The notes beneath the pieces are model-generated. The model searched no databases. It saw only the letters and a list, made by a program, of their open reading frames with translations, and was not told where the DNA came from. Shown here piece after piece: positions 26,088 to 64,000 of a DNA stretch of 64,000 nucleotides. The position numbers were made by a program, and so were the translations under genes. The DNA comes from Bacteroidales bacterium (GTDB taxonomy: Bacteria; Bacteroidota; Bacteroidia; Bacteroidales; FEN-979): positions 8,110-72,109 of the forward strand of contig JAQWBQ010000009.1 in the NCBI GenBank assembly GCA_028706295.1, written 5' to 3'. The stretch's first letter is position 1; every line of letters begins with the position of its first letter.

Positions 26088-26111
26088 GCTTCTCTCTTTA
26101 TGGCGACCGGT

Positions 26112-27293: not shown

Positions 27294-27299
27294 AGCTTT

Positions 27300-28487: not shown

Positions 28488-28511
28488 GGGCAGGTCGGTT
28501 AAAGGCTTCTG

Positions 28512-29645: not shown

Positions 29646-29711
29646 AATGATATTATTAATATTTCGAATATTCAAGTACAGATGCGTACAACCTTCATTA
29701 CACCATTCGGA

Positions 29712-30902
29712 TCATTGGTTTTTTTCATGGTAAGAATGTTCCGTGTGGATAAATGTTTTATTTCCGCCTTTGATTCTCAGGGTTATCAGTATCATCAGCA
29801 GAAAAATCCCGGGAAGCGATATCAGAGCCTGTAGTGTTTTAAGGTTGAAGAACCGCTTCGGGATGGAGATCACCAGGGTAATAAGAATCAGAGAGAGGAT
29901 TCCAGTCCAGCAATAAAAAAATGGCATATCCGGGATGATCAGGTTCAGGGCGCCGATCAGAACCACGATGCCGAGGAGTAAAATTCTGGGGGGCAGGGAG
30001 AATTGAAGCGTTTTATCAAAGTAATCCAGATTCCCGTGCCTGAAAAGATGATAAACAGATTTCAGAAAGTCTCTGCCAAAGAAATAGATTTGCGATGAAA
30101 TCCATCGCTTACGCTGTTTATAAAAAACATGGGCATTCTGAACTTTTTCGTCCAGAACAAAGGCATTGTTCAGGTATTCAATCCGGATGTTATCGTGAAG
30201 CAGCATCAGCTCCAGTTCTTTGTCGAACCCTCCTACGGCGTTTAGTTTCGGAATGTACTTGCGAAACAAACTTACATCAAAGACCATGGCCGATCCGATG
30301 AGGGCTGAGGAGAGTCCGAGCGCCCGGTGACCATTCCTGAAAATATTGTTGTTAATCTCTTCGCTGATGGCATCAAGCAGTGCAAAGGAGGTATTCGTAT
30401 TTTTCGCGATCCGGTGACATTGAATGACACCGGCCCCTGATTCGGCTGCTTCATTTATTTTCTGTAAAAAACGATCCTCCATGAGGTTGTCGGCATCGAG
30501 GATCAGGATAACCTCCGTTTCAGGTAAAAGATGTTCCAGGGCAAGTTGCAGGGACTTGGCTTTGGTGCTTTTTTCAAACTTTACTTCCACGAGTTGTATC
30601 GGGAAGCCTTTGAGTTTTTCGAGGGTATCCTGCTGAAAGGTATCGGCAATAAGCAGGATATTAAAATGTTCCGAAGGATAATCCTGTTCAAGGGCTGACC
30701 GTACGACATCCAGGATCACGGGATCTTCCATGAAGGCAGGAATGACAACGGTGATGTGCCGGTTGCGATCGGAGGTGTATTTTTTTCCGGGTCCGCTCAG
30801 AGATCCAGCGAGGGCGAATACAAAGAGGTACAGCGTGGTGCCCCCGAAATAGATGAGCATCACGATCTGGATTATCCGAATAATATTTTCGATTAGCTCC
30901 AT
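29712..30902 (-). CDS. GT2 glycosyltransferase, membrane-bound
   Basis: VVIPAFMED, IAD, TKAKSL, ILDADNLM, GFDKELE, VLDEK, QRKRWI. Confidence 0.9.
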   Translation of the reverse strand: MELIENIIRIIQIVMLIYFGGTTLYLFVFALAGSLSGPGKKYTSDRNRHITVVIPAFMEDPVILDVVRSALEQDYPSEHFNILLIADTFQQDTLEKLKGFPIQLVEVKFEKSTKAKSLQLALEHLLPETEVILILDADNLMEDRFLQKINEAAESGAGVIQCHRIAKNTNTSFALLDAISEEINNNIFRNGHRALGLSSALIGSAMVFDVSLFRKYIPKLNAVGGFDKELELMLLHDNIRIEYLNNAFVLDEKVQNAHVFYKQRKRWISSQIYFFGRDFLKSVYHLFRHGNLDYFDKTLQFSLPPRILLLGIVVLIGALNLIIPDMPFFYCWTGILSLILITLVISIPKRFFNLKTLQALISLPGIFLLMILITLRIKGGNKTFIHTEHSYHEKNQ

Positions 30903-30915
30903 ATCGTTCTCCTCT

Positions 30916-32109
30916 TTATGGTTTTTCTTTGGTTACTCCGTGCGTAGTATGGCCGAACCCTTTTTTTGCCTTGAAAATCCTGAACAGGGAACCCATCATA
31001 ACGAGAAATCCTTTTGGAAGGAGCATTACCGCTTTCAGGGTTTGCAGGTTAAAATAGGGTCGCGGAACAGCAATCAGTAAGGTAAACGATGTTATCAAAG
31101 TAATGCCAATCCATCCCAGGGTCCACAACATCGGGTTAAAAAATAAAGATAAGACCGAGATGATAAAAAGAAAACCGATCAGGAAGATTCTCGGCGGGAG
31201 AAATTGCTGGAATACCTTATCGAAATAATCGATGTTTCCGTTTACAAAAAGTTCCCTGATACTCGAAAAGAAATATTGGCGGGCGTATATGATCTGGTTT
31301 GCAATCCAGCGGGTCCGTTGTACCAGGAAAACATTCGATTTCTGAACCTTTTCATCGTACACCCGGGCATCTTCGCGATATTCGATGGTATACTTATTTT
31401 TCAGAAGTTTAATTTCCAATTCTTTATCTTCACCAAAAGAATCGATCGTCGACATATAGGATTTGAATAGCCCGTAATCGAAGGCCATGCCACTGCCAAT
31501 CAGCGCCGAAGAAATACCGGCCACCCGGTGTCCTTTTCTGAAAATATGGTTATTGATCTCTTCGCTGACTGAATCGAGAATTGCGAACGAGGTATTCCTG
31601 TTTTTCGACATCCGGTGGCCCTGAATGGCAAGGTATCCGGCCGAAAGCGAATCGTTCATCAGAGTGATGAAATTATGTTCCATGAGGTTGTCGGCATCGA
31701 GAATGACGGCCGCATCATAATCATCAGGAAGCAGGCTCATGGCTTTATTCAGGGCTCTTGCTTTTGAGCTCTTTTCAAATGACACTTCGACAACACGGAT
31801 CGGTAATTTCTTCAGCTCGGTGAGGGTTTCGGCTTTAAACGAATCAGCAATAATGATTACTTCAAAGCATGACGACGGGTAATCCTGATCGAGTGCCTGC
31901 CTGGCAACGTCAACGATCACGGCATCTTCTTTATAACCCGGTATTAAAACCGCGAATTTCCTGAGTCGCTCGTCTTTCTTTTTTTTGGGATGGTAGGTGA
32001 ATAGGCCGGCCATGGAAAAGAAAGCAAAGTACAGCACGGCAATCAGAAAATAAAAGAAAAGAACCGCTTGCAGGATGTTAATAATTATAATCAGCGTTTC
32101 TCCGACCAT
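30916..32109 (-). CDS. GT2 glycosyltransferase, paralog of 29712-30902
   Basis: VLIPGYKED, SKARALN, ILDADNLM, GEDKELE, VYDEK, QRTRWI. Start is ATG 32109, downstream of a -7 element. Confidence 0.88.
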   Translation of the reverse strand: MVGETLIIIINILQAVLFFYFLIAVLYFAFFSMAGLFTYHPKKKKDERLRKFAVLIPGYKEDAVIVDVARQALDQDYPSSCFEVIIIADSFKAETLTELKKLPIRVVEVSFEKSSKARALNKAMSLLPDDYDAAVILDADNLMEHNFITLMNDSLSAGYLAIQGHRMSKNRNTSFAILDSVSEEINNHIFRKGHRVAGISSALIGSGMAFDYGLFKSYMSTIDSFGEDKELEIKLLKNKYTIEYREDARVYDEKVQKSNVFLVQRTRWIANQIIYARQYFFSSIRELFVNGNIDYFDKVFQQFLPPRIFLIGFLFIISVLSLFFNPMLWTLGWIGITLITSFTLLIAVPRPYFNLQTLKAVMLLPKGFLVMMGSLFRIFKAKKGFGHTTHGVTKEKP

Positions 32110-51634: not shown

Positions 51635-51659
51635 AGAAGGCCGCCCGTAGAGGCAGCCT
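51627..51659 (-). terminator. Intrinsic terminator (minus strand)
   Basis: On - reads AGGCTGCC-TCTACG-GGCGGCCT followed by TCTTTATTTT, between convergent genes. Confidence 0.7.
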
Positions 51660-51684
51660 CCTGAACAAATAGGCAACCTGAAGC

Positions 51685-52326
51685 CTACTTAAGTTGTTTA
51701 CAGAGAAATTTTCCCAATTGTTTTCCGGCTGATTCAAAGCATTCGGAAATCCTGAGTGTCGCATCATAAGCTTTTTTGTCAACCGAAACCCCTCCGACCG
51801 ACATTGAAGGTGAGGTCTTTGGTTTTACGCTTTCCATAAGAATAGTGGCAAGCACCTTGCCGGGGGTGGCGGTTTCAATCAGGTCGACTGAAAGGTCGAT
51901 GGAAGCAGATTTTGCGGTGCCCATGACAATGGTCTCTACACCCTGTTCCACGTAGGTTACATGGACGACCAGGGTGTATTTGGCTGAAGGATCGGAAACG
52001 CCGGAAAGTCCGCAATCTTTTGATTGTTTGTTAAAGTCCTCCTCGAAAGCCGGTTGATATTTTTCTGTTTTGGCCGCTTTCCATTTTTCAGCCCACATCT
52101 CTCCGGTACCAGGGTCTTTTGCATTTCTGTCGGCAATCCCTTTTTTCAGATAATCGGCTTCATTGTCGAATTTTCCGACCACCATGGCCGAATAATCGTA
52201 CTGGATGTTTATGGCTGACTGGCCTTTAAGGTCCGAGATGCTGCCTGTCTTAATTTTTTGCCCGAAGGTGGTCCCGGCTGAAATTATTAATGCCAGGAAA
52301 AAAAGTAATAAGAATGATTTTTTCAT
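51685..52326 (-). CDS. Secreted/periplasmic hypothetical protein
   Basis: Signal TFG|QK; own -7 element at 52365-52372; no recognisable catalytic motif. Confidence 0.75.
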   Translation of the reverse strand: MKKSFLLLFFLALIISAGTTFGQKIKTGSISDLKGQSAINIQYDYSAMVVGKFDNEADYLKKGIADRNAKDPGTGEMWAEKWKAAKTEKYQPAFEEDFNKQSKDCGLSGVSDPSAKYTLVVHVTYVEQGVETIVMGTAKSASIDLSVDLIETATPGKVLATILMESVKPKTSPSMSVGGVSVDKKAYDATLRISECFESAGKQLGKFLCKQLK

Positions 52327-52396: not shown

Positions 52397-53719
52397 TTAG
52401 TTTGAAACATTCCCGTTTTTTTCTCGGTTATCGATAAATTTAACCGGTTTCCGGCTCATTTCGGGGCTTTGCATTTTCAGAATTTTTGCCTCTGGTTCGA
52501 ATGAAAGGAGGGGTGCAACGCGCAGTTTGGCTCTGAAGTGGTCTTTGATATCTTTCTCTTTTTCTTCACCGATTCCCTTGCAACTCAGGTGGATCAGAAT
52601 TTCGTCCGTTCCGATCTGGTTCGTATAGACCTCCACGATGTAATTCGTCACGTATTCGATATTATCTAGAATGTCGTACAAAGCGGGAGGGAAAAGGGTT
52701 GTTCCTTTGTACTTGATCATCTGGTTTTTCCGACCGATGACCGGACCGAGTCGCATGGTGGTTCTTCCGCAGGAGCAAGGATCTTTGTAATGATGACAAA
52801 CATCTCCTGTTTTGAACCGGATCAGCGGCATGCCCTCAACGCCGAGGGTGGTTATCGTCACTTCTCCCAATTCGCCTTCTTTTACCGGTTGATCAAGGTC
52901 ATTCAGAAACTCGACAATGATTAGTTCCGGGTGATGGTGGCCGCCGCAGCCTTCGGTACATTCGGTGAAAGATGTTCCCATTTCGGTTGAGGCATAGGTA
53001 GAATAGAGTTTAATCGGCCATTTGTCGAAAATTTTCTTTCCGAGCGTATTCAGGGAGAGGTCTTTTTTTCGAAGTGGTTCTCCGATGCAGATTGCGCTTT
53101 TAATACTGCTGGAGCGGTAGTCAATGCCATGTTGTTCGGCGTAGTCAATGATTTTAAGGATGAAGGATGGGACGGTTACGATGGCGTTGGGTTTGATGCG
53201 TCCGATGGTATCCCACTGTAGCTCAGGTATCCCGTTTCCGACCCTGACGACGCTGGCCCCCAACATTCTGATACCGAGAAAATAAGCCAGGCCGGCCATG
53301 AAACGACGGTCGATGGTGGTCATTAACTGGTAAATGTCGGATGCGGAGCCACCCGCACAGGTAAAGGAGATGGCCTCATTGTATGCCAGGCGGTCCAGGT
53401 CTTTATCGGTCATGGCAAAAGTGACCGGATCCCCCAATGTTCCGGAAGTGGTTATATAATCGATGATCCGGTCAGCAGGAACACACAGGAAATCCCGGTT
53501 GTATTTTTGAAGGTCTTCCTTGTTGGTAACCGGGATTCTTTTCAGGTCGCTTACCGACCTGATCCGGTCCACGTCAATATGGTTCAAGGAAAACAGATTC
53601 CGGTAGAAGGGTGAATTTTGCCAGGCATAATTCAGGGCTTCCCGGAGTCGATGGTCCTGATAAGCGGCAATTTCCTCAAGCGGTTTCTGTTCAATTGCCG
53701 GGAAAAATAATTGATTCAT
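52397..53719 (-). CDS. Phenylacetate-CoA ligase (PaaK)-like adenylate-forming enzyme
   Basis: AWQNSPFYR, TTSGTLGDP, YASTEMG, IRFKTGD, GRKNQMIKYKG. Confidence 0.88.
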   Translation of the reverse strand: MNQLFFPAIEQKPLEEIAAYQDHRLREALNYAWQNSPFYRNLFSLNHIDVDRIRSVSDLKRIPVTNKEDLQKYNRDFLCVPADRIIDYITTSGTLGDPVTFAMTDKDLDRLAYNEAISFTCAGGSASDIYQLMTTIDRRFMAGLAYFLGIRMLGASVVRVGNGIPELQWDTIGRIKPNAIVTVPSFILKIIDYAEQHGIDYRSSSIKSAICIGEPLRKKDLSLNTLGKKIFDKWPIKLYSTYASTEMGTSFTECTEGCGGHHHPELIIVEFLNDLDQPVKEGELGEVTITTLGVEGMPLIRFKTGDVCHHYKDPCSCGRTTMRLGPVIGRKNQMIKYKGTTLFPPALYDILDNIEYVTNYIVEVYTNQIGTDEILIHLSCKGIGEEKEKDIKDHFRAKLRVAPLLSFEPEAKILKMQSPEMSRKPVKFIDNREKNGNVSN

Positions 53720-53742
53720 GAAAAATTTGAAGTACGGGGTTG

Positions 53743-54432
53743 TTAAATTTTAATACCGATCATGATCTTAAAGACGGAGGTCTCAATGGTCTGACTTGGT
53801 TTGCTTTTATTGAAATTATCATATTTCATCTCTCCGAAACTGTATTGGGCGGAGAACAACATCACGCTGTACCGGATGTTCATTCCGATCTCATTTTGCA
53901 AAAAATTCATCCCGTACTTGGAGAAGTTGGATTCGCCGATCCCGTCCCATTCGTCATAATGATAGGCAAAGTTTGCATTGATCTTGTAAAAGATATCGAT
54001 CATCAGCCGGTCGACCGGATTGATGGTAAACACGGGACCGAATTTTTGACCTCCATACCAGTAGTAGTGGTCGGTCGGTTTGTTCGGATCGACCGGGTTG
54101 GTTGAATTGAACCACAGGGAAAGGAATGTGGCGTCGAGTCCGGCGCGCAGGTGGTTATTGGCAAACGCGGGCCCAAAATAGATCAGAAACCCCATATCGA
54201 AAGCCCCGCCGATCTTTGCAGGCAGGTAGTTTAACCCGGTGACTGACTGGTTTCCGGATGTGGGATAAACATGTTGTCCCAGGGCATAATTGCCGATCGG
54301 GAATACTGGTCCCAGGCTGAAGTAAAACCCGCTGTTAATCCGGTTTTTATTATAGGTTGGTTCATCCTGGGCATTCCCTGTCAGCGGTATCAGCAGGGCA
54401 AACAAAACGTAAATAATTGCAGCTCTTTTCAT
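53743..54432 (-). CDS. Hypothetical small outer-membrane beta-barrel protein
   Basis: Signal GNA|QD; alternating hydrophobic strands (GFYFSLG, FDMGFLIY, IGMNIRY, FKIMIGIKI); -7 element at 54454-54461. Confidence 0.55.
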   Translation of the reverse strand: MKRAAIIYVLFALLIPLTGNAQDEPTYNKNRINSGFYFSLGPVFPIGNYALGQHVYPTSGNQSVTGLNYLPAKIGGAFDMGFLIYFGPAFANNHLRAGLDATFLSLWFNSTNPVDPNKPTDHYYWYGGQKFGPVFTINPVDRLMIDIFYKINANFAYHYDEWDGIGESNFSKYGMNFLQNEIGMNIRYSVMLFSAQYSFGEMKYDNFNKSKPSQTIETSVFKIMIGIKI

Positions 54433-54513
54433 GGATTAGTTCTGAAAATTTGTCAAAATTACATCTTATCATTATTGTTTGAGTACCAAACTTCAATTTA
54501 TTCTGAATCTTGT

Positions 54514-55599
54514 TCAGTGCGGGTAGTTATACCGGTCCATGAACAAGGTCAGTTTATTGGCAATGATTTCTTTATCGACTGATGAAAGTGTGAACTCATT
54601 TTTTTTAAAATCGGCATTGGAGCCCATGTAGTTTTTTATTTGACGCTGCAGATCTTCAGGAAAGGGATGACCCATTCCCGTGTAGAGATCCCGGAGAACA
54701 GAGACGGTATCTTTTTCAAGATCTTCAAACCTGATTTCGAAGAAATTACACGGTCTGATCAGGTTCCGGTCCTTTTCGATGGTATGGAGCAGAAACTCCA
54801 GGAACCCGGCAACCGGTTCCGTACTGAACCGGCACTTGAATTTTGTAAGTGCATTTTGTTTCTGAACAATATTCCACATGTTGATGGTAGAGGGCACAAC
54901 ATTGTAAGGATGCCGAAGGATGTGAATAAATTTTGCATCCGGGAAGCGTTCGGTCAGGAATTTGATGCGGAATGAGTTGAACGGATTTTTAGAGACGATG
55001 GTTCGGGAGTTACCCATCTGAAGTTTGGCAAAGTAACGAACCAGGTTTTCACTCCAGTTAACAAGGAGTTCATCGGCAGGTAAAAACGGCAGGTCATTTT
55101 TCAGGAAGTAAGAGGAAGAGGTCGGGAATACCAGTTTCTCCAGCGGGGAGTAGTTTGTGAGGCGGTAAATCGCGTACTCATCCTCCTGGGGTTCGTCCAT
55201 TCCGATCCTGACCATATCCATCGGGCGGTGCTCGTCGATCAGGGTTTTGAAGACCGGTTTGTAGTATTTATAGGACAAAAGAAAACTATCGGGTATGGCT
55301 ACCTGAAACAGGGTAGGGGCAAGCATGGAGGGATCCAGGCTCAGGAGTTTATGAAGGAGTGTGGAGCCGGTTCGCCAGTGACCGATTATGAAGATGGGAT
55401 TTCTGGGTGGGATCGCTTCAGCCAGTTCCTTTCCAAACCTGATTTTTTCAGCCGTTGCGAACAATGAGGACCAGACCGAGCTTTGAAAGAGGAAAAACAT
55501 CCGGGACAGTGTTGCCGGAGTATAAGAGATTCTGTTCCTGCGAAGTAAGCGGACAAGCTGGCCAAAAGTGATTCCGGCAGTCAGATAGGAATCTTTCAA
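54514..55599 (-). CDS. PAPS-dependent sulfotransferase
   Basis: 5'-PSB IFIIGHWRTGSTLLH, 3'-PB FIHILRHPYNVVPS, PQEDE, VSKNP, FEDL. Confidence 0.9.
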   Translation of the reverse strand: MKDSYLTAGITFGQLVRLLRRNRISYTPATLSRMFFLFQSSVWSSLFATAEKIRFGKELAEAIPPRNPIFIIGHWRTGSTLLHKLLSLDPSMLAPTLFQVAIPDSFLLSYKYYKPVFKTLIDEHRPMDMVRIGMDEPQEDEYAIYRLTNYSPLEKLVFPTSSSYFLKNDLPFLPADELLVNWSENLVRYFAKLQMGNSRTIVSKNPFNSFRIKFLTERFPDAKFIHILRHPYNVVPSTINMWNIVQKQNALTKFKCRFSTEPVAGFLEFLLHTIEKDRNLIRPCNFFEIRFEDLEKDTVSVLRDLYTGMGHPFPEDLQRQIKNYMGSNADFKKNEFTLSSVDKEIIANKLTLFMDRYNYPH

Positions 55600-55611
55600 G
55601 ATTGTCCTGAA

Positions 55612-55884
55612 TTATGATGGTTGCAGATTTCTTTGTTCCGTTATGAAGGCGGCGATGCTATTGACAGAACGGATCACTTCCCGGGCTAGGTTTTGATCGT
55701 TGATGCGAATACCATAAGTTCGCTGGATAGCCATAATGATTTCAATTGCATCGACCGAGTCAAGCGTCAGCGCGTTGCCTCCCCCAAAGAGAGGTTTTTC
55801 GTCATCCACCGCGGCAGGGTCTATATTTTCGATTGCCAGGGTAGACATGATCAGTTTTTTTATTTCAAGTTTCAATTCTTCCAT
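55612..55884 (-). CDS. Acyl carrier protein
   Basis: 90 aa, MEELKLEIKKLI..PLFGG..LDSVDAIE with the phosphopantetheine Ser. True start is ATG 55884, inside track ORF 55612-56034. Confidence 0.92.
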   Translation of the reverse strand: MEELKLEIKKLIMSTLAIENIDPAAVDDEKPLFGGGNALTLDSVDAIEIIMAIQRTYGIRINDQNLAREVIRSVNSIAAFITEQRNLQPS

Positions 55885-55889
55885 AGTGG

Positions 55890-56894
55890 TCAAACGGTCT
55901 TCGATAACTTCCTGAAAAAATTCTCTTCCACGTCGGCGCGGTCGCGGATCATATCGCCTAACTGTTTTAATTTTTCGGCGCCAAGGTCCCGGTTCTTGCC
56001 GATCCGGGCGGCAAAAAGTGAAATTTCCCTCCACCCGTCGCCGATAAGCATGAGTTCGGCCGAAAGATCCCGCAATTCGGACTTATTCAGGATTTCGGAT
56101 GCCTGCTGAAGAAAAGTGGCATAGATGTACCTGAATCCGGCCCCACCGGTTCCCTGATCTTCCAAAAGAATGTTGATCTTCATTATTTCGTGCGAAAGAT
56201 GTTCGGTATCGCGGGCGATGGCAGGCCATTCGAGGATCTTGCGGGAAAACATCCGCATTCCCCGGATACCGAGGAAGGGGATCGGGATTTTCAGCATGTT
56301 GAAGCAGGCTTTCCGGATGCCTCTCTCCACAGCCTTTTTCATATCGATTTCGGTCGGGATCCGGTCGAGGTGGTACAAAAAACCCTTTGGTGACATTTCA
56401 CCGCCGGCAAACCTTCCCTTTTGAAGCGATGTTGCTTCGAGTTCGACCATCTTCGGGAAATAGGCATCGCTGATAAGATATCGGGTTCCCTGCCGGCCGA
56501 CTACCACCATAAAATGGACATTGATATGGACCCGCTCCCAGGATGGCACGTAGTCAAGGTAGAAGAAATCGACCTGGCAGGCCGTCGGGATTTTCCGGTC
56601 GATAAGGTCATCAAGTGCAGTCATTCCCGATGCCGGATCTTTGAATGCGTAAGTTTTGAACTTCACACCCAGGCGTTTTTCGATATCCACGCGCATCTGC
56701 CCGGGCTTATTGCGAACAATAAAGGTCGGGAATGCAAAAGATTTCATCTTATGGAAGTAACCGAAAAAGATCCCGCCGGATATGCCGAAAACCAGGGGTT
56801 CGGTAATGTCCAGTCCACCAAAATTCAATAGTGATGTTATGGTCCCCGATTCGCAGTGGGCCGCCATCTTATGTTTAAAGTCGAGTTCCGTCAT
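55890..56894 (-). CDS. BtrH_N/DUF4872-family papain-like transacylase/peptidase
   Basis: FKHKMAAHCESG, EPLVFGISGGIFF, VDFFYLDY, VHFMVVVG, ISD, EQ-like GTGGAGFRYIYATFLQQA. Confidence 0.8.
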   Translation of the reverse strand: MTELDFKHKMAAHCESGTITSLLNFGGLDITEPLVFGISGGIFFGYFHKMKSFAFPTFIVRNKPGQMRVDIEKRLGVKFKTYAFKDPASGMTALDDLIDRKIPTACQVDFFYLDYVPSWERVHINVHFMVVVGRQGTRYLISDAYFPKMVELEATSLQKGRFAGGEMSPKGFLYHLDRIPTEIDMKKAVERGIRKACFNMLKIPIPFLGIRGMRMFSRKILEWPAIARDTEHLSHEIMKINILLEDQGTGGAGFRYIYATFLQQASEILNKSELRDLSAELMLIGDGWREISLFAARIGKNRDLGAEKLKQLGDMIRDRADVEENFFRKLSKTV

Positions 56895-57401
56895 CTAAGT
56901 CCGCTCCGAAATTTTGGTGAGCACCACATAGGGATTTTCGGTCTGATCCTGTATTACTTCGAGATGATCGGTACGATTTTCAAGGATCATGGCCGATTCA
57001 AACTGTTCTTTGTTTTTGATCAGCACGACCTGTAAAAGGTTTGCCAGAGGAACATTAAATACGCCTGCATAGCGGGAGAGCTCGGCAGCCGTCACCTCAG
57101 CAAAACCGGATGGATCCAGATGTTTCTTTACCCGTGATTTCCGGATGGCAGCCCGTGCTGCAAGCTCCGAAAGAGTCAGGTCTTCAAGTACCATGAAATA
57201 TTTCACAACGCTGATGGAACCCCTGATAAGCTGGTCTCTGAGTGCAGATTCAAGGTTTTTTTTCTTCAGAAAAAAATCATCCAGGTAATTGGCTGTGAGA
57301 TAGGATCCGGTTTGAATGGGACCGTACTTTCCGTCATCCTTTTCAACATAAAGAATCATCTGTTGATCAGGGCAATCCACAAATCCTTCTTTTTCTTTCA
57401 T
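56895..57401 (-). CDS. Hypothetical protein with C-terminal HTH-like segment
   Basis: ILYVEKDDGKY..TGS; LTLSELAARAAIRKSRVKKHL..ELSRYAGVFNVP. Start is ATG 57401; abuts the BtrH gene. Confidence 0.65.
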   Translation of the reverse strand: MKEKEGFVDCPDQQMILYVEKDDGKYGPIQTGSYLTANYLDDFFLKKKNLESALRDQLIRGSISVVKYFMVLEDLTLSELAARAAIRKSRVKKHLDPSGFAEVTAAELSRYAGVFNVPLANLLQVVLIKNKEQFESAMILENRTDHLEVIQDQTENPYVVLTKISERT

Positions 57402-57420
57402 ACCATGACCAGTAAGTGCT

Positions 57421-58608
57421 TTATTTACGCTTTGCAAAAATAACAATGCTGAAGAACATTGCCAAACCAAAAAAACCCATCAGTGAAAGGGTTCGGGGTA
57501 CGATATCACACAGGGTTCCGTTGCGGACGAACAGGTCAAGATAGTTGTCGATTCCCCATCGGAGGGGCGAAGCCAGACTGATTACCCGGATGGCCTCTGG
57601 CAACAGATGGACCGGCAAAAAGACGCCACTGATCACACCGAGCAGAACCACGATCACCGATCCGAACATGGCGGCTTGTCCATGGGTTGTGGCGACTGAG
57701 CCGATGATCATTCCGAAACCGATGGCTGCGAGCGCGGAGCCAAAGGTCGTAATGGCTATGGCAAGGTTGTTTGATCCGGTTTCCAGGGGCGGGAAACCAA
57801 AGAGCAGGGGAAACACCTGTTTTCCGATCCACAGGATCAACAAAAACTGCAGGAGGCAAACCAGGAAGTAGATGATCACTTTCCCTGAAAGGATCGACAG
57901 CAACCGTACAGGCAGCGTACGGAGCCGCAAATAACTTCCCTCGTTTTTTTCCGTGATAAGGCTTCCGGAAAGGGGTATCACGATGAAAAACATGGCAAAC
58001 AAGATGAATCCCGGAACATTGTTCTGGATGACATTGGGTACGATCGATTCCCGGTTGCGCGATGGGTAGAGGCAGGTCATGGGAGGAAGCGATTTCTGTT
58101 TCTGTTCGGCCATTACCCTGATCACCGAAGCAAGTTCTCCCGAAAGTCCGTCGATGATTTCGTTCATCGCAAGCCGGGCCTGAACACTTTTAATAAGGTA
58201 TTGAAGAGAATTCAGGATTGATGTTCTGTAACCCTGGTCCAGGGTCGGGTCCACCCAGATCCGGATGGTTGAATCGGGATGATCCAGATCGATTCCGAAT
58301 TTATATTTACCCTGAGCAATAAGACCGGAAGCCAGTTCCGGGGTAAGTGGCGCTTCAGGAACCTGGCGGACAACAGTAAAAAATCCCGATGAATCGAGCG
58401 CTTTGCAAACCTCGCGCGAAATGAGCGACGGTTTTTGGTCGACAACCAGAACCGATGTGCGTTCACGCTGGTATTTCAGCGCGTTTTCCTGTGCCAGTGT
58501 AACGACAAAAATCAGCAGAACCGGCATAAAAAAGAGAATGAACAGTCCCGGAATATCGCGAAGCAGGAGAAGCGCTTCCCTGACCAGTATTGATCGGAGT
58601 TTATGCAT
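57421..58608 (-). CDS. ABC-2 type transporter permease
   Basis: REALLLLRD, VVDQ, NVPGFILFAMFF, ITEKNEG..LRL, GVFLPV..PEAIR..SPLRWG. Confidence 0.9.
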   Translation of the reverse strand: MHKLRSILVREALLLLRDIPGLFILFFMPVLLIFVVTLAQENALKYQRERTSVLVVDQKPSLISREVCKALDSSGFFTVVRQVPEAPLTPELASGLIAQGKYKFGIDLDHPDSTIRIWVDPTLDQGYRTSILNSLQYLIKSVQARLAMNEIIDGLSGELASVIRVMAEQKQKSLPPMTCLYPSRNRESIVPNVIQNNVPGFILFAMFFIVIPLSGSLITEKNEGSYLRLRTLPVRLLSILSGKVIIYFLVCLLQFLLILWIGKQVFPLLFGFPPLETGSNNLAIAITTFGSALAAIGFGMIIGSVATTHGQAAMFGSVIVVLLGVISGVFLPVHLLPEAIRVISLASPLRWGIDNYLDLFVRNGTLCDIVPRTLSLMGFFGLAMFFSIVIFAKRK

Positions 58609-58630
58609 CAGGCAAAAGTAACAAGAAATG

Positions 58631-59710
58631 TCAATTCTTTCTGATTTCGATCAGGCTGATCGGGGAAATAGTAGGAATGACCCGGGAGCAGTGCAGGCCG
58701 GAATTTTCGATCAAACGCAGGAATTCTTCTTTCGTCCGTTCTTTTCCACCGGGCATGGTCGCAAGCATCTGTATATCGAGCAGTTTCGACAGGGAGGGTT
58801 CATTTCCCACCGGAACAACCATATCGATCACGAGGATCCGGGAATGATTGTCCATCCGGTCCGAAATATTTTTCAGAAGTTTCGTGCACAGATCATCATT
58901 CCAGTTATGAATGATGTTTTTAAGGATATAGAGGTCGGCTGACAGGGGTACTTCTTTGAAAAAATCACCGGTAATCAGGTTGATCCTGTCACTCAGCCCG
59001 TACCCTTCGATCAGGGCCGGCGCATTGGTGAGCGCTTCAGCCGTATCAAACAGGATCCCGCGTGTCTTGTCGGTTCCCGAAAGGATGTTTGACAGCAGAA
59101 ATCCTTCGCCTCCTCCGATATCGGCGATTACGGGGAACTTTGAAAAGTCGTAGGCAATCAGGATGGGATCCAGTCCGAGAAACGACAGGTTGGACATCGA
59201 TTTATCAAAGATACTGCTCTCATCCGGATGGTTCTTTAAATAGTCGTAAATACCCATGCCGTATTTATGAGAGAATGCATCATTTCCGCTCCTGACTGCG
59301 TGTTCCAGATCGCCGAGGAGGTTCCAGTTCACCGGACCCAGGTGGTGGAGGATCATATATCTCAGGGATTGCGGACCGTCGAGCAATCCACGGGAAAGGG
59401 AATTCAGTGCGAAACTTCCGTTGCTTTTTTGTTTAAATATTCCCACCCCGGCCAGGGCCCGCATCAGTCGGTATATGGCTTCAGGGTCGGCCTTTACCCT
59501 GTTTGCAATGTCACCTGAGGAGCGGGGTTTTTCCTCCAGATGCCTGGCAATATTAAGCTTCGCGGCAATATAAAGGCAGGGAAGTACCCAGAAGTTCTGA
59601 AATTGTTCATAGAGGACCACACTACCGGGAAAGGTCCGGCGGTTAAGCCTGATTAAAAAGGTGCGGAATCTATTGATGGCATTAATGAGCCAGGTGGGAG
59701 GAAGAATCAT
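58631..59710 (-). CDS. Small-molecule O-methyltransferase (Methyltransf_2 with dimerisation domain)
   Basis: YIAAKLNIA..LYR-like IYRLMRALAGVGIF, IADIGGGEG, GDFF, LKNIIHNW, GGKERT. Confidence 0.9.
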   Translation of the reverse strand: MILPPTWLINAINRFRTFLIRLNRRTFPGSVVLYEQFQNFWVLPCLYIAAKLNIARHLEEKPRSSGDIANRVKADPEAIYRLMRALAGVGIFKQKSNGSFALNSLSRGLLDGPQSLRYMILHHLGPVNWNLLGDLEHAVRSGNDAFSHKYGMGIYDYLKNHPDESSIFDKSMSNLSFLGLDPILIAYDFSKFPVIADIGGGEGFLLSNILSGTDKTRGILFDTAEALTNAPALIEGYGLSDRINLITGDFFKEVPLSADLYILKNIIHNWNDDLCTKLLKNISDRMDNHSRILVIDMVVPVGNEPSLSKLLDIQMLATMPGGKERTKEEFLRLIENSGLHCSRVIPTISPISLIEIRKN

Positions 59711-61515
59711 GCCAATACTTCTTCGTTCTGATGAAGCGGAAGTTTTTTTAATTCAAGTTCACATACTTCCAAATCCGAGATCAGTTTTTTCTTTTTATCG
59801 AACAAGGTTGTTTTCACTTGCGAAAACAGCTCTTTGTAGTATTGAATACCGTTGCAGAGGTTATCCCTGAAATCAGCGAAGTACTCCTGTTGTTTTTTCG
59901 TCCAGGGAAGAGAGGTCTCATTCATTTTCTTCCTGAGATAATCAATATAGATCGTCAGTTCCTTAATGAACATGTTAGGCCTGTCATTGCGGCTGATGAT
60001 GTTTATTTTACCGTAGATATGATCCACCATTTCCTTAAGTGTCATCACCTCTGAAAAATAGGCCATATTAGGTCCCGGACATATTGAAACACCTTTCTTT
60101 TCAACGCTGGTATCCAGTTCATTCACCAGAAGGGCTGAGGTGCCTAAGCCGACGCAGATACAGGATTTATTGACTATTTTACGGTATTCGGCCTGAAATT
60201 CATCATCGGGGAGACCACTGGCTTTTAATTCCTCAATTTTAAGTTTTTGATATTTCCGTGATGCGGTGCAGAGCGTAGGTTCTCCGAATTCATTATTGAG
60301 GGCGGCATATTTTTTATGACATGGATTTCCAGGTGTATTTTGATGGATATAGGTCTCTTTCTCTTTATCTTTGGTATTGCCTTTCAGATTATTGAATGGC
60401 ACACCCAGCGGGCTGATATCACTGATAAACAGATACTCTTCCCTGGCTTTGCAAAGCAGATCAAGGGTTTGCTCATCCACGTTGACCACTTCGGGAACCA
60501 ACAGGAAGGGTGTTCCCCAGCCCACGGAATCGATCTGGTACTGATCAGCCAGGAACTGGTGTTCTTCAAATGTACCAACGCCGCCTTGTGCAGTGATTTT
60601 AATTTCAAGCGCGTTTTCGGGGCAAGGTCGGTTTTTTGCTTTCAGGGCAACCTTAAGCAGTTCAAAAGTTTGGTAGATGAGGTCCTCACGGTTACGGTTG
60701 ATCTCTTCGAGTACCGGTCCAAGGAGGAAACCGTTCGTCGGAAAGGCATGCCCTCCGCAGTTTAAACCTGATTCGATGCGGTATTCAGAAACCCACAGGC
60801 CCTTTTTCGCGAGGTATTTTCCCTGGATCAGCGCCGACCGGTGGTCACTCACTTTAAGGGTTATTTTTTTCTTCAGGGTGAAATTCGTATCCGGATAGAA
60901 GTCATCAAAGGTCTCCAGGTAATTGTATAAGCGGGGACTCATCCCGGCCGATAATACAACAGATGAATTCAGGTCGCTGTTCACGAATCCACGCAAGGCA
61001 GCATGTCCGTCATTGTATTTAGCCGGAAGTTTTACATGATCCTTATAGTTTTCTTTATCCACTTTGGTCATGATATTCACATCGATGCTGCCCATGGAAA
61101 GATTTTCATGGATCCAATCTTTTAAATCGAGGTTATCCCAATCCTGTTTGAATTGTTCGAATTTCTGTTTAAGGGCTGAAGAATCCTGAAGAAGGTCAAT
61201 ATATTTCGAAAATTCACTGCTCTTCTGATCGCAGGTGGTTTTCAGTTCTTCAAATTTATCATGGGCGATTTTATTGACCATATTGAGATAGGCCGTGATC
61301 CGCTTTGCCCTGAAATCATCGATTTTTTTTGAGATTGCCTGAAATGGCAAGTCAAATTTTTTGCTGTAAAACGCTCTGAGTTTTTCCATTAACATATCAT
61401 CCAACAATGAAATCACGGATGAAATACCCAGATGAGCAACTTTTACCGGTGTATCTATGGAATATCCAATCCCAAGTACGGGGATATGGAATGAATGCGG
61501 GTTTATTTTATTCAT
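59707..61515 (-). CDS. Conserved hypothetical; probable FMN TIM-barrel oxidoreductase (FabK/NMO-like) with Cys-rich C-terminus
   Basis: IESGLNCGGH, ITAQGGVG, DSVGWGTPFL, ISPLGVP; PCHK..LCTAS..CICVGL..ICPGPN. Confidence 0.55.
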   Translation of the reverse strand: MNKINPHSFHIPVLGIGYSIDTPVKVAHLGISSVISLLDDMLMEKLRAFYSKKFDLPFQAISKKIDDFRAKRITAYLNMVNKIAHDKFEELKTTCDQKSSEFSKYIDLLQDSSALKQKFEQFKQDWDNLDLKDWIHENLSMGSIDVNIMTKVDKENYKDHVKLPAKYNDGHAALRGFVNSDLNSSVVLSAGMSPRLYNYLETFDDFYPDTNFTLKKKITLKVSDHRSALIQGKYLAKKGLWVSEYRIESGLNCGGHAFPTNGFLLGPVLEEINRNREDLIYQTFELLKVALKAKNRPCPENALEIKITAQGGVGTFEEHQFLADQYQIDSVGWGTPFLLVPEVVNVDEQTLDLLCKAREEYLFISDISPLGVPFNNLKGNTKDKEKETYIHQNTPGNPCHKKYAALNNEFGEPTLCTASRKYQKLKIEELKASGLPDDEFQAEYRKIVNKSCICVGLGTSALLVNELDTSVEKKGVSICPGPNMAYFSEVMTLKEMVDHIYGKINIISRNDRPNMFIKELTIYIDYLRKKMNETSLPWTKKQQEYFADFRDNLCNGIQYYKELFSQVKTTLFDKKKKLISDLEVCELELKKLPLHQNEEVLA

Positions 61516-61553
61516 TAAAGGGGCTAAGGAAATGCAAAGGTACAGATTATTAT

Positions 61554-63974
61554 CTAAAACTGGATTCTCCAGGTTCCCATAGGGAAAAAGACCATGTTGA
61601 AAAAATCCCTGATCTCTCCGGTTTTCGGGTCGATCCGTTGCATGGAGATGTTGGTGAAGGCGGTACGATATTGAAGGTCTACGGAAAATTCGATGTTGTA
61701 CCCGGGCAGGTTTCTGCGGATTCCGAACCTGAAAGCGATCCTTTTATATTCGGGATACCGCGGAATATAAGCCTGTTGCCAGTCGTAAACCGCTCCGCCG
61801 GTGGCTGTTGTGGCCTCTACATCATAGGGCACATAAGGACTTCCGCCGGTCCAGGTAGCCCGAAGTCCGAACGACATGACTCCCCATTTTCGTTTTCCCA
61901 TCACGAATTCATATCCGCCCGCGGCATTCAGCGCGTAGTTTACGTTGAATGCCGATGATCTTGATGCACCATCCGAACCAAGGTATCCGGAGTTGAACAG
62001 CGAGGCAGTTATAAGGAAATAGTAATTCTTCCTGAAGAAATGTTCGAAGGTGAACTCGATGCCATAATTATGGCCGGTGCCCTGATTTACCAGGCTGTCG
62101 GCATATTGCCGGTCGATGAAAAAATCATGACCCTGGTTGCTGAGTGCATAAGAGGGAATGGATTCTTTTACCGGGATATCGTACAAATACTGGTAGTACA
62201 ATTCGGTTCTGAACCTGAGGTCTTTATTGATCAGGTAGTTATATCCCAGGGCGCATTGAGCGCTCCGTGAAAAATCCAGGTTAAGATTTGGTTGAAAGGT
62301 CGTTCCGTCGCTCAAAGGACTTAAAATAAAATAGATCACACGGGGTTGCAATTGGCTGTAAAGTCCGGCTCCGAAGTCAAGGGCATGTTTTTCGGCGATA
62401 TCCCATTCAAACCCGAATCGCGGCTCAATGCTCCAGGAGTTGTTCAGCGACAGCCAGGCACCGTAAAGTCCAAGGGTGGCCGAAAACCGTTCGCTTGCGC
62501 GATGGTGCCACTGCGAAAACCCGCGTAACATCGACATGAATTCATCCGACCGGGTATGGACCACAAACCTGCCCTTCGACATGGCGCTATCGGCGAACGA
62601 CATCTGAAAGAAATCGAGCGATAATCCGCTGTTCAGGACATTCGCGGCTGAGAATTTCCGGGTGATCTGCGAGGAAAATGAGTATTTAAATTCGGTGGAA
62701 CGTTCGCCGGCCCAGGGCGAAGGGGTTTGCTGAACATTTGAGAAGGTATCGATCTTTGTCCGGGTTTCTGAAGCGACCAGGTACAATATGTTTTTCCAAA
62801 GTATCTCTTTTTTCAGAAGGATTTGATGGGAAATTCCGAGAACCCCGATATCGGAACCATTCGAAAGATCCTCTCCATAATCGGGGAAGAGCCAGTCGCC
62901 GGGATCTTTATCGCTGTCGAAGAGATTTATGGCGCTCAGTCCGCCGATACCGGTCAGGGTAAAGGTGCCGGCTTTCCGGGTCGGGATGGTGACTTTCAGG
63001 TTAAGATCCTGATATTTCGGGATGATTCCGGTATTGATACCGAACAAGCTCAGGAATTGAAGGGGAGAATACCGGTATGCCACGAGGTACGATGAGCCAT
63101 TCGATTTCGAAATGGGTCCTTCGGCGCCGAATTCCAGGCCGTTCCAGCCGATTTCGAACCAGTACCGTCGTTTTTCGGTGTTCCCGTTCCGCATCCTGAG
63201 GTCGAAGATCCCTGCGAGTGTATTGCCGTACTGAGCCGGAAAAGCTCCCGTGAGGAAATCGGAATTGGTGATCAGGTTGTTGTTGAGGATGGTCACAGGC
63301 CCCCCGGTGGTTCCGACTGCCGCGAAATGGTTGGGATTTGGGATCTCCATATCATCGATGCGCCATTGCAGCCCTGCCGGTGAGTTGCCCCTGACGATGA
63401 TGTCATTCCGGTTGTCGATGCCGCTGGTAACCCCGGCAAAGTTGGCGACCATCCGGGCGGGGTCGTTGTAGCTTCCTGCATATCGGAATGTCTCATCGAC
63501 ACTGAACGACCGGATGCTGACGGTCGCCATTTTATTGATGGATTCATTTTTTTGATAGTCAGCCCTGATTTCAACCTCCGGTGCGTGCTGTGGCCGCTCT
63601 TCCAGGTACACCGTCAGCGAGGTCTCTTTCCCGGTCGTAACAATGAGCGGTTCTGTTATCGTAGTGGCATAGCCCACAAAGGAGATTTTCAACCGGTATT
63701 GTCCGATTTTCAGGCGCTGAATGCGGAATTTGCCCAGGGTATCTGTGGTAGTGCCGATCAAAGGATCGGAATCCGTGATGATGACCGTTGCTCCTGGTAA
63801 AGGTTTAAGGGTTTGATTGTCGAGAACCGTCCCGGCAATTGCGGACCGGAGCACCTGCTGACCGTTCAGTTCACGAGAAGACCAGGAACAAAGCAGGATC
63901 AGGAGCAAAAACTGGAAAAACGTGGCCCTGAAGGGCAAAATCCGGAATTGATATTTCAGCAGGCTGCATCTCAT
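61554..63974 (-). CDS. TonB-dependent receptor with N-terminal carboxypeptidase-regulatory-like domain
   Basis: Signal LNG|QQ; GTVLD..PLPGATV; plug DPARMV..GV..NDIIVRGNSP..NPNHF; C-terminal Phe (WRIQF). ATG 63974 (TTG 63986 possible). Confidence 0.9.
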   Translation of the reverse strand: MRCSLLKYQFRILPFRATFFQFLLLILLCSWSSRELNGQQVLRSAIAGTVLDNQTLKPLPGATVIITDSDPLIGTTTDTLGKFRIQRLKIGQYRLKISFVGYATTITEPLIVTTGKETSLTVYLEERPQHAPEVEIRADYQKNESINKMATVSIRSFSVDETFRYAGSYNDPARMVANFAGVTSGIDNRNDIIVRGNSPAGLQWRIDDMEIPNPNHFAAVGTTGGPVTILNNNLITNSDFLTGAFPAQYGNTLAGIFDLRMRNGNTEKRRYWFEIGWNGLEFGAEGPISKSNGSSYLVAYRYSPLQFLSLFGINTGIIPKYQDLNLKVTIPTRKAGTFTLTGIGGLSAINLFDSDKDPGDWLFPDYGEDLSNGSDIGVLGISHQILLKKEILWKNILYLVASETRTKIDTFSNVQQTPSPWAGERSTEFKYSFSSQITRKFSAANVLNSGLSLDFFQMSFADSAMSKGRFVVHTRSDEFMSMLRGFSQWHHRASERFSATLGLYGAWLSLNNSWSIEPRFGFEWDIAEKHALDFGAGLYSQLQPRVIYFILSPLSDGTTFQPNLNLDFSRSAQCALGYNYLINKDLRFRTELYYQYLYDIPVKESIPSYALSNQGHDFFIDRQYADSLVNQGTGHNYGIEFTFEHFFRKNYYFLITASLFNSGYLGSDGASRSSAFNVNYALNAAGGYEFVMGKRKWGVMSFGLRATWTGGSPYVPYDVEATTATGGAVYDWQQAYIPRYPEYKRIAFRFGIRRNLPGYNIEFSVDLQYRTAFTNISMQRIDPKTGEIRDFFNMVFFPMGTWRIQF

Positions 63975-64000
63975 AACGGATTGCAAGGTTACAGATTTTT

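Follow-up and report, generated by a model that had tools for sequence, protein, structure and literature searches.

What is a predicted PAPS-type sulfotransferase (ST) doing beside a stand-alone acyl carrier protein (ACP) and a BtrH-like protein in a Bacteroidales genome, and do the genes around it form a biosynthetic cluster of their own or the end of a larger one? The locus lies in a stretch of 64,000 nucleotides (the window) from an uncultured anaerobic Bacteroidales bacterium associated with landfill, sludge and sediment. A sequence-only reading had proposed a separate, new specialized-metabolite cluster built on eight tightly spaced minus-strand genes, with gaps of 38 nt or less and one ATGA overlap. 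This spacing matches the ORF table, which lists ten co-directional minus-strand genes from 63986 to 52397 and, with the gene for a 213-aa protein, eleven; the successive gaps are 38, -4 (the ATGA overlap), 22, 19, 0, 5 and 12 nt, followed by 81 and 23 nt. A hairpin at 51662-51635 is the probable 3' end of the operon. Transcript evidence was sought for these genes and none was found. The features are:

61554..63986 (ATG at 63974), minus strand: TonB-dependent-transporter-like (TBDT-like) outer-membrane protein with a CarboxypepD_reg N-terminus (Pfam; Foldseek)
59707..61515, minus strand: highly conserved 602-aa protein, family-less, possible TIM barrel carrying a Cys cluster at its C-terminus
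58631..59710, minus strand: SAM-dependent O-methyltransferase of the phenolic small-molecule type (Dimerisation and Methyltransf_2, Pfam E = 6.5e-44)
57421..58608, minus strand: ABC-2 type permease (Pfam)
56895..57401, minus strand: divergent DarG-family small protein (NF053545, 49.8 bits; NF053536, 47.7 bits; both below cut-off)
55890..56894, minus strand: DarH paralogue, BtrH-like predicted ACP-dependent acyltransferase (NF053550; BtrH_N and DUF4872)
55612..55884, minus strand: stand-alone ACP with an LDSVD serine motif (PP-binding; NF006617)
54514..55599, minus strand: PAPS-type sulfotransferase (Sulfotransfer_3; Stf/CurM/TPST group)
53743..54432, minus strand: 229-aa signal-peptide protein, family-less and variably present
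52397..53719, minus strand: FlxY, PaaK-type aryl-acid (4-coumarate) CoA ligase (NF053551)
51685..52326, minus strand: 213-aa protein bearing a signal-like segment at its N-terminus, conserved final gene of the module
51635..51662, minus strand: terminator-like hairpin with a 12-bp stem, 7 GC pairs and a T-rich tail (computed)

The labels O-methyltransferase, ABC-2 permease, BtrH, ACP, sulfotransferase and PaaK-like AMP ligase, all given earlier from the letters alone, are borne out by domain matches. Judged by gene content and order, however, these genes are the distal end of one very large flexirubin-type aryl-polyene pigment-lipid cluster, and not the separate cluster first proposed. The flexirubin/aryl-polyene character itself had been recognized, and it is supported by the scores of FlxY (NF053551, 714 bits vs. 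an NCBIfam equivalog cut-off of 520) and DarH (NF053550, 324.7 bits vs. 300). The biosynthetic core, suspected to lie beyond position 64000 or elsewhere, was located past the window and on two further contigs, the joins between the three contigs being inferred from the colinear relative G027. Past the window, the same contig encodes a ketosynthase (KS), MCAT, an MMPL+AGPAT+MT fusion, GT2, CrtD-like and C45 proteins and radical SAM enzymes. Contig C49 carries the tyrosine ammonia-lyase FlxA (NF053541, 826 vs. cut-off 700), FlxB (384 vs. 340) and tandem DarG/DarH pairs, and contig C91 carries LolA2 (204 vs. 125) together with three KS and CLF-like genes; LolB2 scores 75.7 against a cut-off of 60. 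KS genes occur on C98, C91 (three) and C49, giving at least five KS/CLF genes overall, and FabZ-like proteins, several ACPs and the KR and DH genes of a type II FAS-like set are present, as are four B12 radical SAM genes and the feature set comprising DarG/DarH, an ABC transporter, LolA2/LolB2, an MMPL exporter and acyl- and glycosyltransferases.

In vitro work has established the FlxY enzyme of Chitinophaga pinensis as a 4-coumarate-CoA ligase (PMC3992019), and the FlxY of the window is predicted to activate the starter unit. Classic dar clusters include a BtrH-like protein, an ABC-2 permease, a small protein of the DarG type and an ACP (PMC3949708), as had been stated for the first three, the small protein then being called HTH-like; in place of that label it has a sub-threshold match to the DarG family (49.8 bits vs. 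170). In a canonical genome (G218) FlxY directly follows the C45 acyltransferase gene, and by this comparison the genes listed above ahead of FlxY are an accessory insertion between the C45 gene and FlxY. No publication connecting flexirubin with sulfotransferases turned up in the literature search, and the sulfotransferase add-on appears to be an undescribed, optional extra on a cluster of the known flexirubin type.

DarA and DarB make the dialkylresorcinol that is esterified to the polyene in flexirubins. The remark that neither gene lies in the window holds true, but the suggestion that they might be found outside it does not: in a genome that is 95.6% complete the best match to the DarB model reaches 72–75 bits against a cut-off of 550, and a DarA from a canonical locus used as query finds nothing better than E = 0.02. 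DarB is also missing in five other species of the genus. By these searches, both genes are absent genome-wide.

The inserted genes include a recurrent cassette. Co-localization of ST, ACP and BtrH in other genomes, put forward earlier as a check, is widespread, contrary to the refuting case in which relatives would not share the genes: the DarG-like gene, the DarH paralogue, the ACP and the ST are adjacent and co-oriented in 19/19 loci of the genus, and the four-gene core was found in 49 of the 54 Bacteroidota loci retrieved with ST, 26 of these 49 lying outside the genus with differing flanks. Gene order is fixed, with DarG-like upstream of the ST-linked DarH and the ACP between DarH and ST. 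Downstream (3') of ST the next gene encodes the 229-aa protein, FlxY or a radical SAM enzyme, and in the genus and several other lineages FlxY comes immediately after ST or the 229-aa gene. Flexirubin-type neighbors (such as FlxY, FlxA/B, C45 and the ABC ATPase) accompany all 49 cassette loci, and no ST relative was found in the 21 canonical DarH-positive genomes of the phylum sample.

The cassette DarH matches BtrH_N (8.2e-37) and DUF4872 (3.5e-43) in Pfam, and its residues H13-C14-E15, H123 and H127 are invariant among 71 sequences. It is one of three DarH copies in the genome; in the tree the other two group with canonical DarH in one clade, from which all ST-linked DarH proteins are separated by a branch of length 1.74 (support 100/87). 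In butirosin biosynthesis, BtrH transfers an acyl group from the ACP BtrI. Both features of that pair are present here, namely a BtrH_N protein with conserved Cys/His and an adjoining ACP with a phosphopantetheine serine, and by analogy the cassette DarH may pass an acyl group from the ACP on to an acceptor.

The ST is probably an active enzyme, as predicted from its Pfam match (PF13469, Sulfotransfer_3, 108 bits vs. cut-off 27, E = 1e-30), its PAPS-binding motifs (5'-phosphosulfate loop and 3'-phosphate motif) and its Stf/CurM/TPST relatives. The motifs GHWRTGST and RHPY..VPS are conserved, with GHWRTGST and R229-P231...P236-S237 invariant in 13 orthologues that are 47–84% identical to the query. 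Profile matches in the PDB comprise Stf9 (1.3e-15), Stf1, the CurM ST (1.6e-10) and the olefin synthase (OLS) ST (3.9e-10), and full-length homology extends to Mycobacterium genes (34–36%). One source labels the ST homologues Stf3-like lipid sulfotransferases; Stf3 is the omega-hydroxy-beta-dihydromenaquinone-9 sulfotransferase, acting on a lipid alcohol, and Stf enzymes carry out PAPS-dependent O-sulfation. As regards PAPS supply, for which cysDNC genes had been suggested as a check, an APS kinase (cysC) is encoded on contig C43 (2.1e-60) and occurs in 34/36 species of the genus. ST identity is about 54%, vs. 75–80% for neighboring genes; such fast evolution fits a tailoring role and equally fits relaxed constraint.

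ST is missing in 9/36 species of the genus, most of the remaining module being retained. Six ST-minus species keep DarG-like, DarH, ACP and FlxY, along with the O-methyltransferase and ABC-2 permease wherever the contig extends that far, and three of the six show a clean ACP-FlxY junction. On a DarH+FlxY tree the ST-minus species are scattered; the best tree implies four changes, of which at least two independent ones are forced by well-supported branches, the others being less firm. An ortholog of the TBDT-like gene is present in 25/27 ST-plus and 0/9 ST-minus species (Fisher p = 6e-7, kinship ignored), and in 10/26 loci outside the genus ST and the TBDT-like gene are no more than 6 kb apart. 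This pattern suggests that ST has been gained or lost together with the TBDT-like gene and that the pair serves a sulfated pigment or lipid.

The product of that gene had been called a TonB-dependent receptor. Its AF2 model matches TonB-dependent transporters in Foldseek (FpvA, FptA, YncD, FoxA and BtuB; E 3e-14 to 1e-13, probability 1.0), whereas its Pfam Plug score (19.2 bits) stays under the cut-off of 23.9. The model (pLDDT 58, moderate confidence) contains about 22 strands over residues 270–805 and indicates a 22-strand barrel of the outer-membrane type; the plug-like residues 128–262, the best conserved stretch of the protein, are modeled at pLDDT ~25. TonB-dependent transporters are importers; what ties ST to the TBDT-like protein may therefore be the import of a precursor, or of a product after its release, and not export.

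The 602-aa protein, earlier taken for a flavo-FeS enzyme, has no sequence match in Pfam, NCBIfam or PDB; its AF2 model (pLDDT 66) yields weak TIM-barrel matches only (Foldseek, E >= 0.01), none of its at least 8000 homologues carries a Pfam domain, and the gene is missing in four relatives (G027, G008, G021 and G017). For the 229-aa protein, previously read as a beta-barrel, no family was found in Pfam or NCBIfam, and its gene comes and goes among both ST-plus and ST-minus relatives. The 213-aa protein has no match in NCBIfam or Pfam, and a homologue follows FlxY in most related loci. The O-methyltransferase gene is common to ST-plus and ST-minus relatives, and the ATPase partner of the ABC-2 permease is encoded in the other dar locus, on C49.

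Taken together, it is fairly likely that the locus is the distal part of a flexirubin-type cluster with an inserted cassette, in which ST provides an optional sulfating decoration tied to the TBDT-like protein. In such a scheme the dedicated ACP would carry an aryl- or acyl-thioester, possibly loaded via FlxY, and DarH would move the acyl group to a hydroxyl or amine acceptor, as in BtrH/BtrI. ST would then O-sulfate a hydroxyl, either on the ACP-derived unit or on the completed pigment lipid, the candidates being the phenol derived from tyrosine and an aliphatic OH, while the O-methyltransferase may methylate a different hydroxyl and the TBDT-like protein would presumably handle the resulting anionic compound at the outer membrane. 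A bolder version, in which ST and the TBDT-like protein divert part of a membrane-anchored pigment pathway to an anionic sulfated aryl-polyene or aryl-lipid that is released and re-imported (or surface-exposed), is considered unlikely; if true, such a product would represent a new functional class of this pigment family in anaerobic Bacteroidales.

Other readings account for part of these data. ST might act as in CurM and OLS, sulfating a beta-hydroxyacyl-ACP, with DarH replacing the thioesterase in release and the sulfate lost decarboxylatively to leave a terminal alkene and a sulfate-free product. The invariable adjacency of the ACP and ST genes, the presence of both STs among the solved relatives at 1.6e-10 and 3.9e-10, and the potential supply of the substrate by the products of KS, MCAT and hydroxyacyl-dehydrogenase genes all speak for it. 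Mycobacterial Stf9 and Stf1 nevertheless outscore the CurM ST, the cassette has no alpha/beta-hydrolase thioesterase, with none dedicated directly after ST, and co-variation with an outer-membrane transporter is left unexplained. The module occurs without ST in at least six species of the genus; ST is therefore not an obligatory release step there, and this route is judged decidedly unlikely. Since natural relatives without ST mostly keep the other module genes, sulfation appears optional, and it is most likely a tailoring step coupled to the TBDT-like barrel and not a CurM-like release.

Two further proposals accept sulfation and differ on the product. Conversion of the pigment pathway into one for a soluble, secreted sulfated metabolite (a metal-binding or signaling aryl-polyene or aryl acid) re-imported by its cognate TBDT would agree with the co-distribution of ST and a TBDT-fold protein, with top structural matches (FpvA, FptA, FoxA, BtuB) that are all importers, with the ABC-2 permease in the module and with the solubilizing effect of sulfation on lipophilic phenols. 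We regard it as improbable, given that the plug lacks a confident model, that genes for lipid anchoring and Lol-type export, as are typical of membrane-bound flexirubins, are retained and that we know of no metal-chelating groups in flexirubin-type products. Very unlikely, in our estimate, is that the cassette is merely lodged in the pigment cluster and makes a separate, sulfated lipid of the envelope that has nothing to do with the aryl polyene: the cassette owns an ACP and an acyltransferase, its position relative to other flexirubin genes shifts between lineages and the nearest labeled ST relatives are lipid-acting (the Stf3 label), but flexirubin-type neighbors occur in 49/49 cases, the cassette DarG and DarH have paralogues in the cluster's own pair, and FlxY stands right after ST or the 229-aa gene in the genus and several lineages.

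Among known systems, butirosin BtrH/BtrI shares the BtrH_N protein with a conserved His-Cys next to a stand-alone ACP; the present locus differs in having no aminoglycoside genes and in the DarH-type DUF4872 C-terminal domain. The ACP-ST-TE arrays of CurM (4GBM) and olefin synthase (4GOX) likewise place an ST of detectable homology right after a carrier protein, but in the present locus these are discrete proteins, a thioesterase partner is missing, ST is dispensable in natural variants and its sequence is closer to Stf. Mycobacterial Stf9 (2Z6V) and Stf1 (2ZQ5) are the best solved sequence relatives, yet they belong to another phylum and gene context, with no ACP or DarH neighbor in the mycobacterial loci. 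The closest systems overall are the flexirubin and dar clusters of Chitinophaga pinensis (flxA-flxY plus dar), Flavobacterium johnsoniae (PMC3992019) and Azoarcus sp. BH72 (dar/arc; PMC3949708), with the FlxA ammonia-lyase, FlxB reductase and FlxY ligase, KS/CLF/DH, DarG/DarH, ABC ATPase and permease, ACPs, LolA2/LolB2, an MMPL exporter, acyltransferases, a glycosyltransferase, a CrtD-like oxidoreductase and the C45 acyltransferase in common. Unlike the canonical clusters, the one described here belongs to an anaerobe, lacks DarA/DarB, has three DarH instead of one and four B12 radical SAM genes, and contains a second arm, in which a distant KSIII is accompanied by two enoyl-CoA hydratases, a hydroxyacyl-CoA dehydrogenase and a thioesterase, as well as the insertion between C45 and FlxY with its ST cassette, O-methyltransferase, TBDT-like gene and family-less genes.

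The gene string on the minus strand is real: the sequence-only reading had described it as tightly packed, and this is borne out by the ORF table, in which intergenic gaps do not exceed 38 nt from the 63986 end as far as the sulfotransferase (ST) gene. The features, with Pfam and/or NCBIfam assignments, are the following.

61554-63986, minus strand: TonB-dependent-transporter-like (TBDT-like) barrel gene, ATG at 63974; CarboxypepD_reg N-terminus and sub-threshold Plug match (Pfam)
59707-61515, minus strand: 602-aa protein, without Pfam or NCBIfam match
58631-59710, minus strand: O-methyltransferase, Dimerisation and Methyltransf_2 domains; ATGA overlap with the 602-aa gene
57421-58608, minus strand: ABC-2 permease (Pfam/NCBIfam)
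56895-57401, minus strand: DarG-family protein, sub-threshold match (NCBIfam)
55890-56894, minus strand: DarH, BtrH-related acyltransferase (324.7, cut-off 300)
55612-55884, minus strand: acyl carrier protein, ACP (Pfam/NCBIfam)
54514-55599, minus strand: ST, Sulfotransfer_3 (1e-30)
53743-54432, minus strand: 229-aa protein, without Pfam or NCBIfam match
52397-53719, minus strand: FlxY (714, cut-off 520)
51685-52326, minus strand: 213-aa gene, next after FlxY in the string
51662-51635, minus strand: strong terminator-like hairpin, closing the string

The barrel protein had no match in a PDB sequence search, and a fold search with its AF2 model matched TonB-dependent transporters at E ~1e-14. 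For the 602-aa protein, sequence searches of Pfam, NCBIfam and the PDB were empty and Foldseek with the AF2 model gave weak TIM-barrel matches only (PdxS, OYE and nitronate monooxygenase, E = 0.01-0.08), which leaves the earlier "flavo-FeS" label unproven. Its family is very large (at least 8000 homologs, mostly at 60-85% identity), carries no Pfam domain and bears only hypothetical-protein annotations; AF2 modeling points to an alpha/beta (TIM-like) fold in which a C-terminal Cys cluster is conserved.

In the ST alignment the motifs GHWRTGST and RHPY..VPS are invariant. The best solved relatives are the mycobacterial enzymes Stf9 and Stf1, followed by the CurM sulfotransferase, the olefin-synthase sulfotransferase and tyrosylprotein sulfotransferases, and one source labels ST homologs as Stf3-type lipid sulfotransferases. 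An APS kinase for PAPS supply is encoded in the genome. No RNA run containing the sequence was found, and coverage was zero in three wastewater metatranscriptomes.

Of the 36 species in the genus, 27 have an ST ortholog (44-95% identity); DarH, ACP and ST are adjacent in all 19 genus loci returned, and in every 4-kb locus that extends to it, FlxY is the next gene after ST or follows with only the 229-aa gene between. Scanning GTDB species genomes with the ST alignment yielded 54 Bacteroidota-type loci, among them ones labeled Prolixibacteraceae, Draconibacterium, Lentimicrobiaceae, Rikenellaceae and unclassified Bacteroidales. The recurrence of ST, ACP and the BtrH-related gene together in other Bacteroidales, proposed earlier as a check, was seen here as a co-oriented DarG-like/DarH/ACP/ST tetrad in 49 of these loci, 26 of them outside the genus, with flanks that vary but include flexirubin-type genes every time. 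The tetrad is missing around more distant ST homologs, those of Fibrobacterota, Mycobacterium (34-36%) and Planctomycetota. Another family of the order has a sulfotransferase with 38% identity (G059, contig C45, 6763-7812; loci L025/L077) that is also without DarH/ACP context, as are homologs in Fibrobacterota and Chitinispirillaceae, one of which adjoins a radical SAM gene like the 456-aa one of the cluster. Among 400 evenly sampled Bacteroidota genomes, 21 have DarH, and none of these has an ST relative. On the DarH tree, canonical DarH and both copies from contig C49 form one clade, and all the ST-linked copies lie across a long, supported branch (length 1.74, 100/87). Monophyly of the ST-linked DarH is unsupported (14%); only their separation from the canonical clade holds.

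Nine species of the genus lack ST, and eight of them keep the ST-type DarH. In the six ST-minus loci fetched, DarG-like, DarH, ACP and FlxY genes are all kept (with a clean ACP-FlxY junction in three), and the O-methyltransferase and ABC-2 permease are present wherever the contig extends that far. The TBDT-like gene is gone in all four ST-minus loci where the region is visible. Genome-wide, its ortholog (at least 61% identity) was found in 25 of 27 ST-plus species vs. 0 of 9 ST-minus species (Fisher p = 6e-7, uncorrected for phylogeny); in the two remaining ST-plus species the contig breaks at that point, and beyond the orthologs there are only paralogs of 33-40%. The presence of the 602-aa and 229-aa genes also varies, but independently of ST. 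APS kinase was also considered as a discriminator between ST-plus and ST-minus species and rejected, being near-universal in the genus. On a DarH+FlxY tree the species without ST fall in several places; four changes are required on the best tree, and at least two are forced by well-supported branches. Between natural ST-plus and ST-minus species, the clean difference is ST plus one outer-membrane transporter.

For the mechanism of the cassette we infer an acyl transfer and an optional tailoring step. The conserved His-Cys of DarH and its adjacent ACP resemble the BtrH/BtrI pair, which suggests that DarH may transfer an acyl group from the cassette ACP. FlxY of C. pinensis is a 4-coumarate-CoA ligase (PMC3992019), and the frequent position of FlxY next to the cassette suggests that the ACP cargo could be an aryl-acyl group. 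A sulfate-elimination release step of the CurM type would assign ST a different role, and CurM is indeed among its solved relatives; this is less likely, since the cassette has no thioesterase partner, Stf enzymes are closer relatives, and natural variants show that ST is dispensable. As ST also evolves faster than the neighboring genes, its most plausible role is optional tailoring by O-sulfation, and the anionic product would need, or be recognized by, the co-inherited outer-membrane transporter. Full-text literature searches returned no paper linking flexirubins with sulfotransferases; the few papers joining aryl polyenes, sulfotransferases and Bacteroidota are, by title and abstract, on other subjects, and sulfotransferases are not mentioned in the reports on Azoarcus dar/arc (PMC3949708) and on C. 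pinensis and F. johnsoniae flexirubin (PMC3992019).

The core genes, suspected earlier to lie outside the window, are indeed found elsewhere in the genome (149 contigs, 95.6% complete): on C98 past the window (C98:8110-72109), on C91 and on C49, which together are one flexirubin-type cluster. Past 64000, the same strand encodes up to the end of C98 a 128-aa unknown protein, a B12 radical SAM enzyme, a C45/AAT acyltransferase and a CrtD-like oxidoreductase and, further out, an MMPL+AGPAT+methyltransferase fusion, GT2+DUF2062, another B12 radical SAM enzyme, MCAT, ACP and a FabF-like ketosynthase (KS). A DUF5723 gene in this part is on the opposite strand from its neighbors. The fusion (L001 8878-12729) is a 1283-aa triple protein of MMPL/RND transporter, 1-acylglycerol-3-phosphate-type acyltransferase and SAM methyltransferase. 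Gene order after the C98 end was taken from a colinear relative (G027, 270-kb contig) and placed on C91 by tblastn. This second arm (L028 7859-14533), found too in lineages with true DarB, comprises a haem-binding-domain protein, a hydroxyacyl-CoA dehydrogenase, a third B12 radical SAM enzyme, a KSIII, two enoyl-CoA hydratases, a thioesterase and a FabZ-like protein. The small haem-binding-domain (PF14376) protein, an odd member of a pigment cluster, straddles the C91/C98 junction (L028 14219-14533 and the C98 end). Between this arm and the opposite C91 end lie a histidine kinase and some 12 kb of other genes; that end carries an ABC permease fragment, a thioesterase, three KS, CLF-like genes, a deacetylase, LolA2 (204 > 125) and LolB2 (75.7 > 60). 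C49 encodes FlxA (826 > 700), FlxB (384 > 340), KS, ACP, an LpxL-like acyltransferase, a FabZ-like protein, an ABC ATPase, the start of a permease, a TIGR04072-type B12 radical SAM enzyme (420 > 360) and two DarG-DarH pairs in tandem (L029 6881-9756), the divergent pair of the window being the third. The TIGR04072 "lipid biosynthesis B12-binding/radical SAM" gene (L029 5068-6483) lies between the LpxL-like and FabZ-like/DarG genes, a slot occupied in canonical clusters by CrtD-like, DarA and DarB genes instead. Four tandem B12 radical SAM paralogs on C130 (~25961-31689) are 32-38% identical to the 514-aa radical SAM enzyme of the cluster (tblastn).

DarA and DarB are missing from this genome: a profile search for DarB gave nothing above 75 bits (cut-off 550), the score of the C91 KSIII, which bears only a distant resemblance to StlD/DarB, and tblastn found no match for a DarA query, the neighbor gene of a verified DarB from a canonical cluster. 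DarB was also not found in five other species of the genus. A DarB-like cyclization without DarA could draw its beta-keto and enoyl substrates from the second arm. Replacement of DarA/DarB by the ST cassette as a general rule was rejected: of 15 further genomes with the cassette that were tested, 9 have a true DarB, and both DarH kinds occur in most of the other genomes that carry it, which indicates that the cassette is an addition.

Flexirubins are markers of aerobic Bacteroidota; the present cluster is a large variant with B12 radical SAM enzymes in uncultured anaerobic Bacteroidales (sludge, landfill, sediment), and includes a widely conserved DarG/DarH/ACP/ST cassette. It offers a testable handle on a predicted, undescribed sulfated lipid or pigment and on DarH function, and the substrate of the transporter could be read from its pairing with ST.

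Most genes of two canonical flexirubin loci from aerobic-type Bacteroidota (G402 and G218) have counterparts here, although canonical genomes sampled have one DarH copy vs. three in this genome. FlxY comes immediately after the C45 gene in G218, whereas here ~11.5 kb separates the two, containing the radical SAM, 128-aa, TBDT-like, 602-aa, O-methyltransferase, ABC-2 permease, DarG-like, DarH, ACP, ST and 229-aa genes. The genes read earlier as a new cluster coincide with this stretch: their flexirubin-type character stands, but they are an accessory insertion in one larger cluster rather than a separate one.
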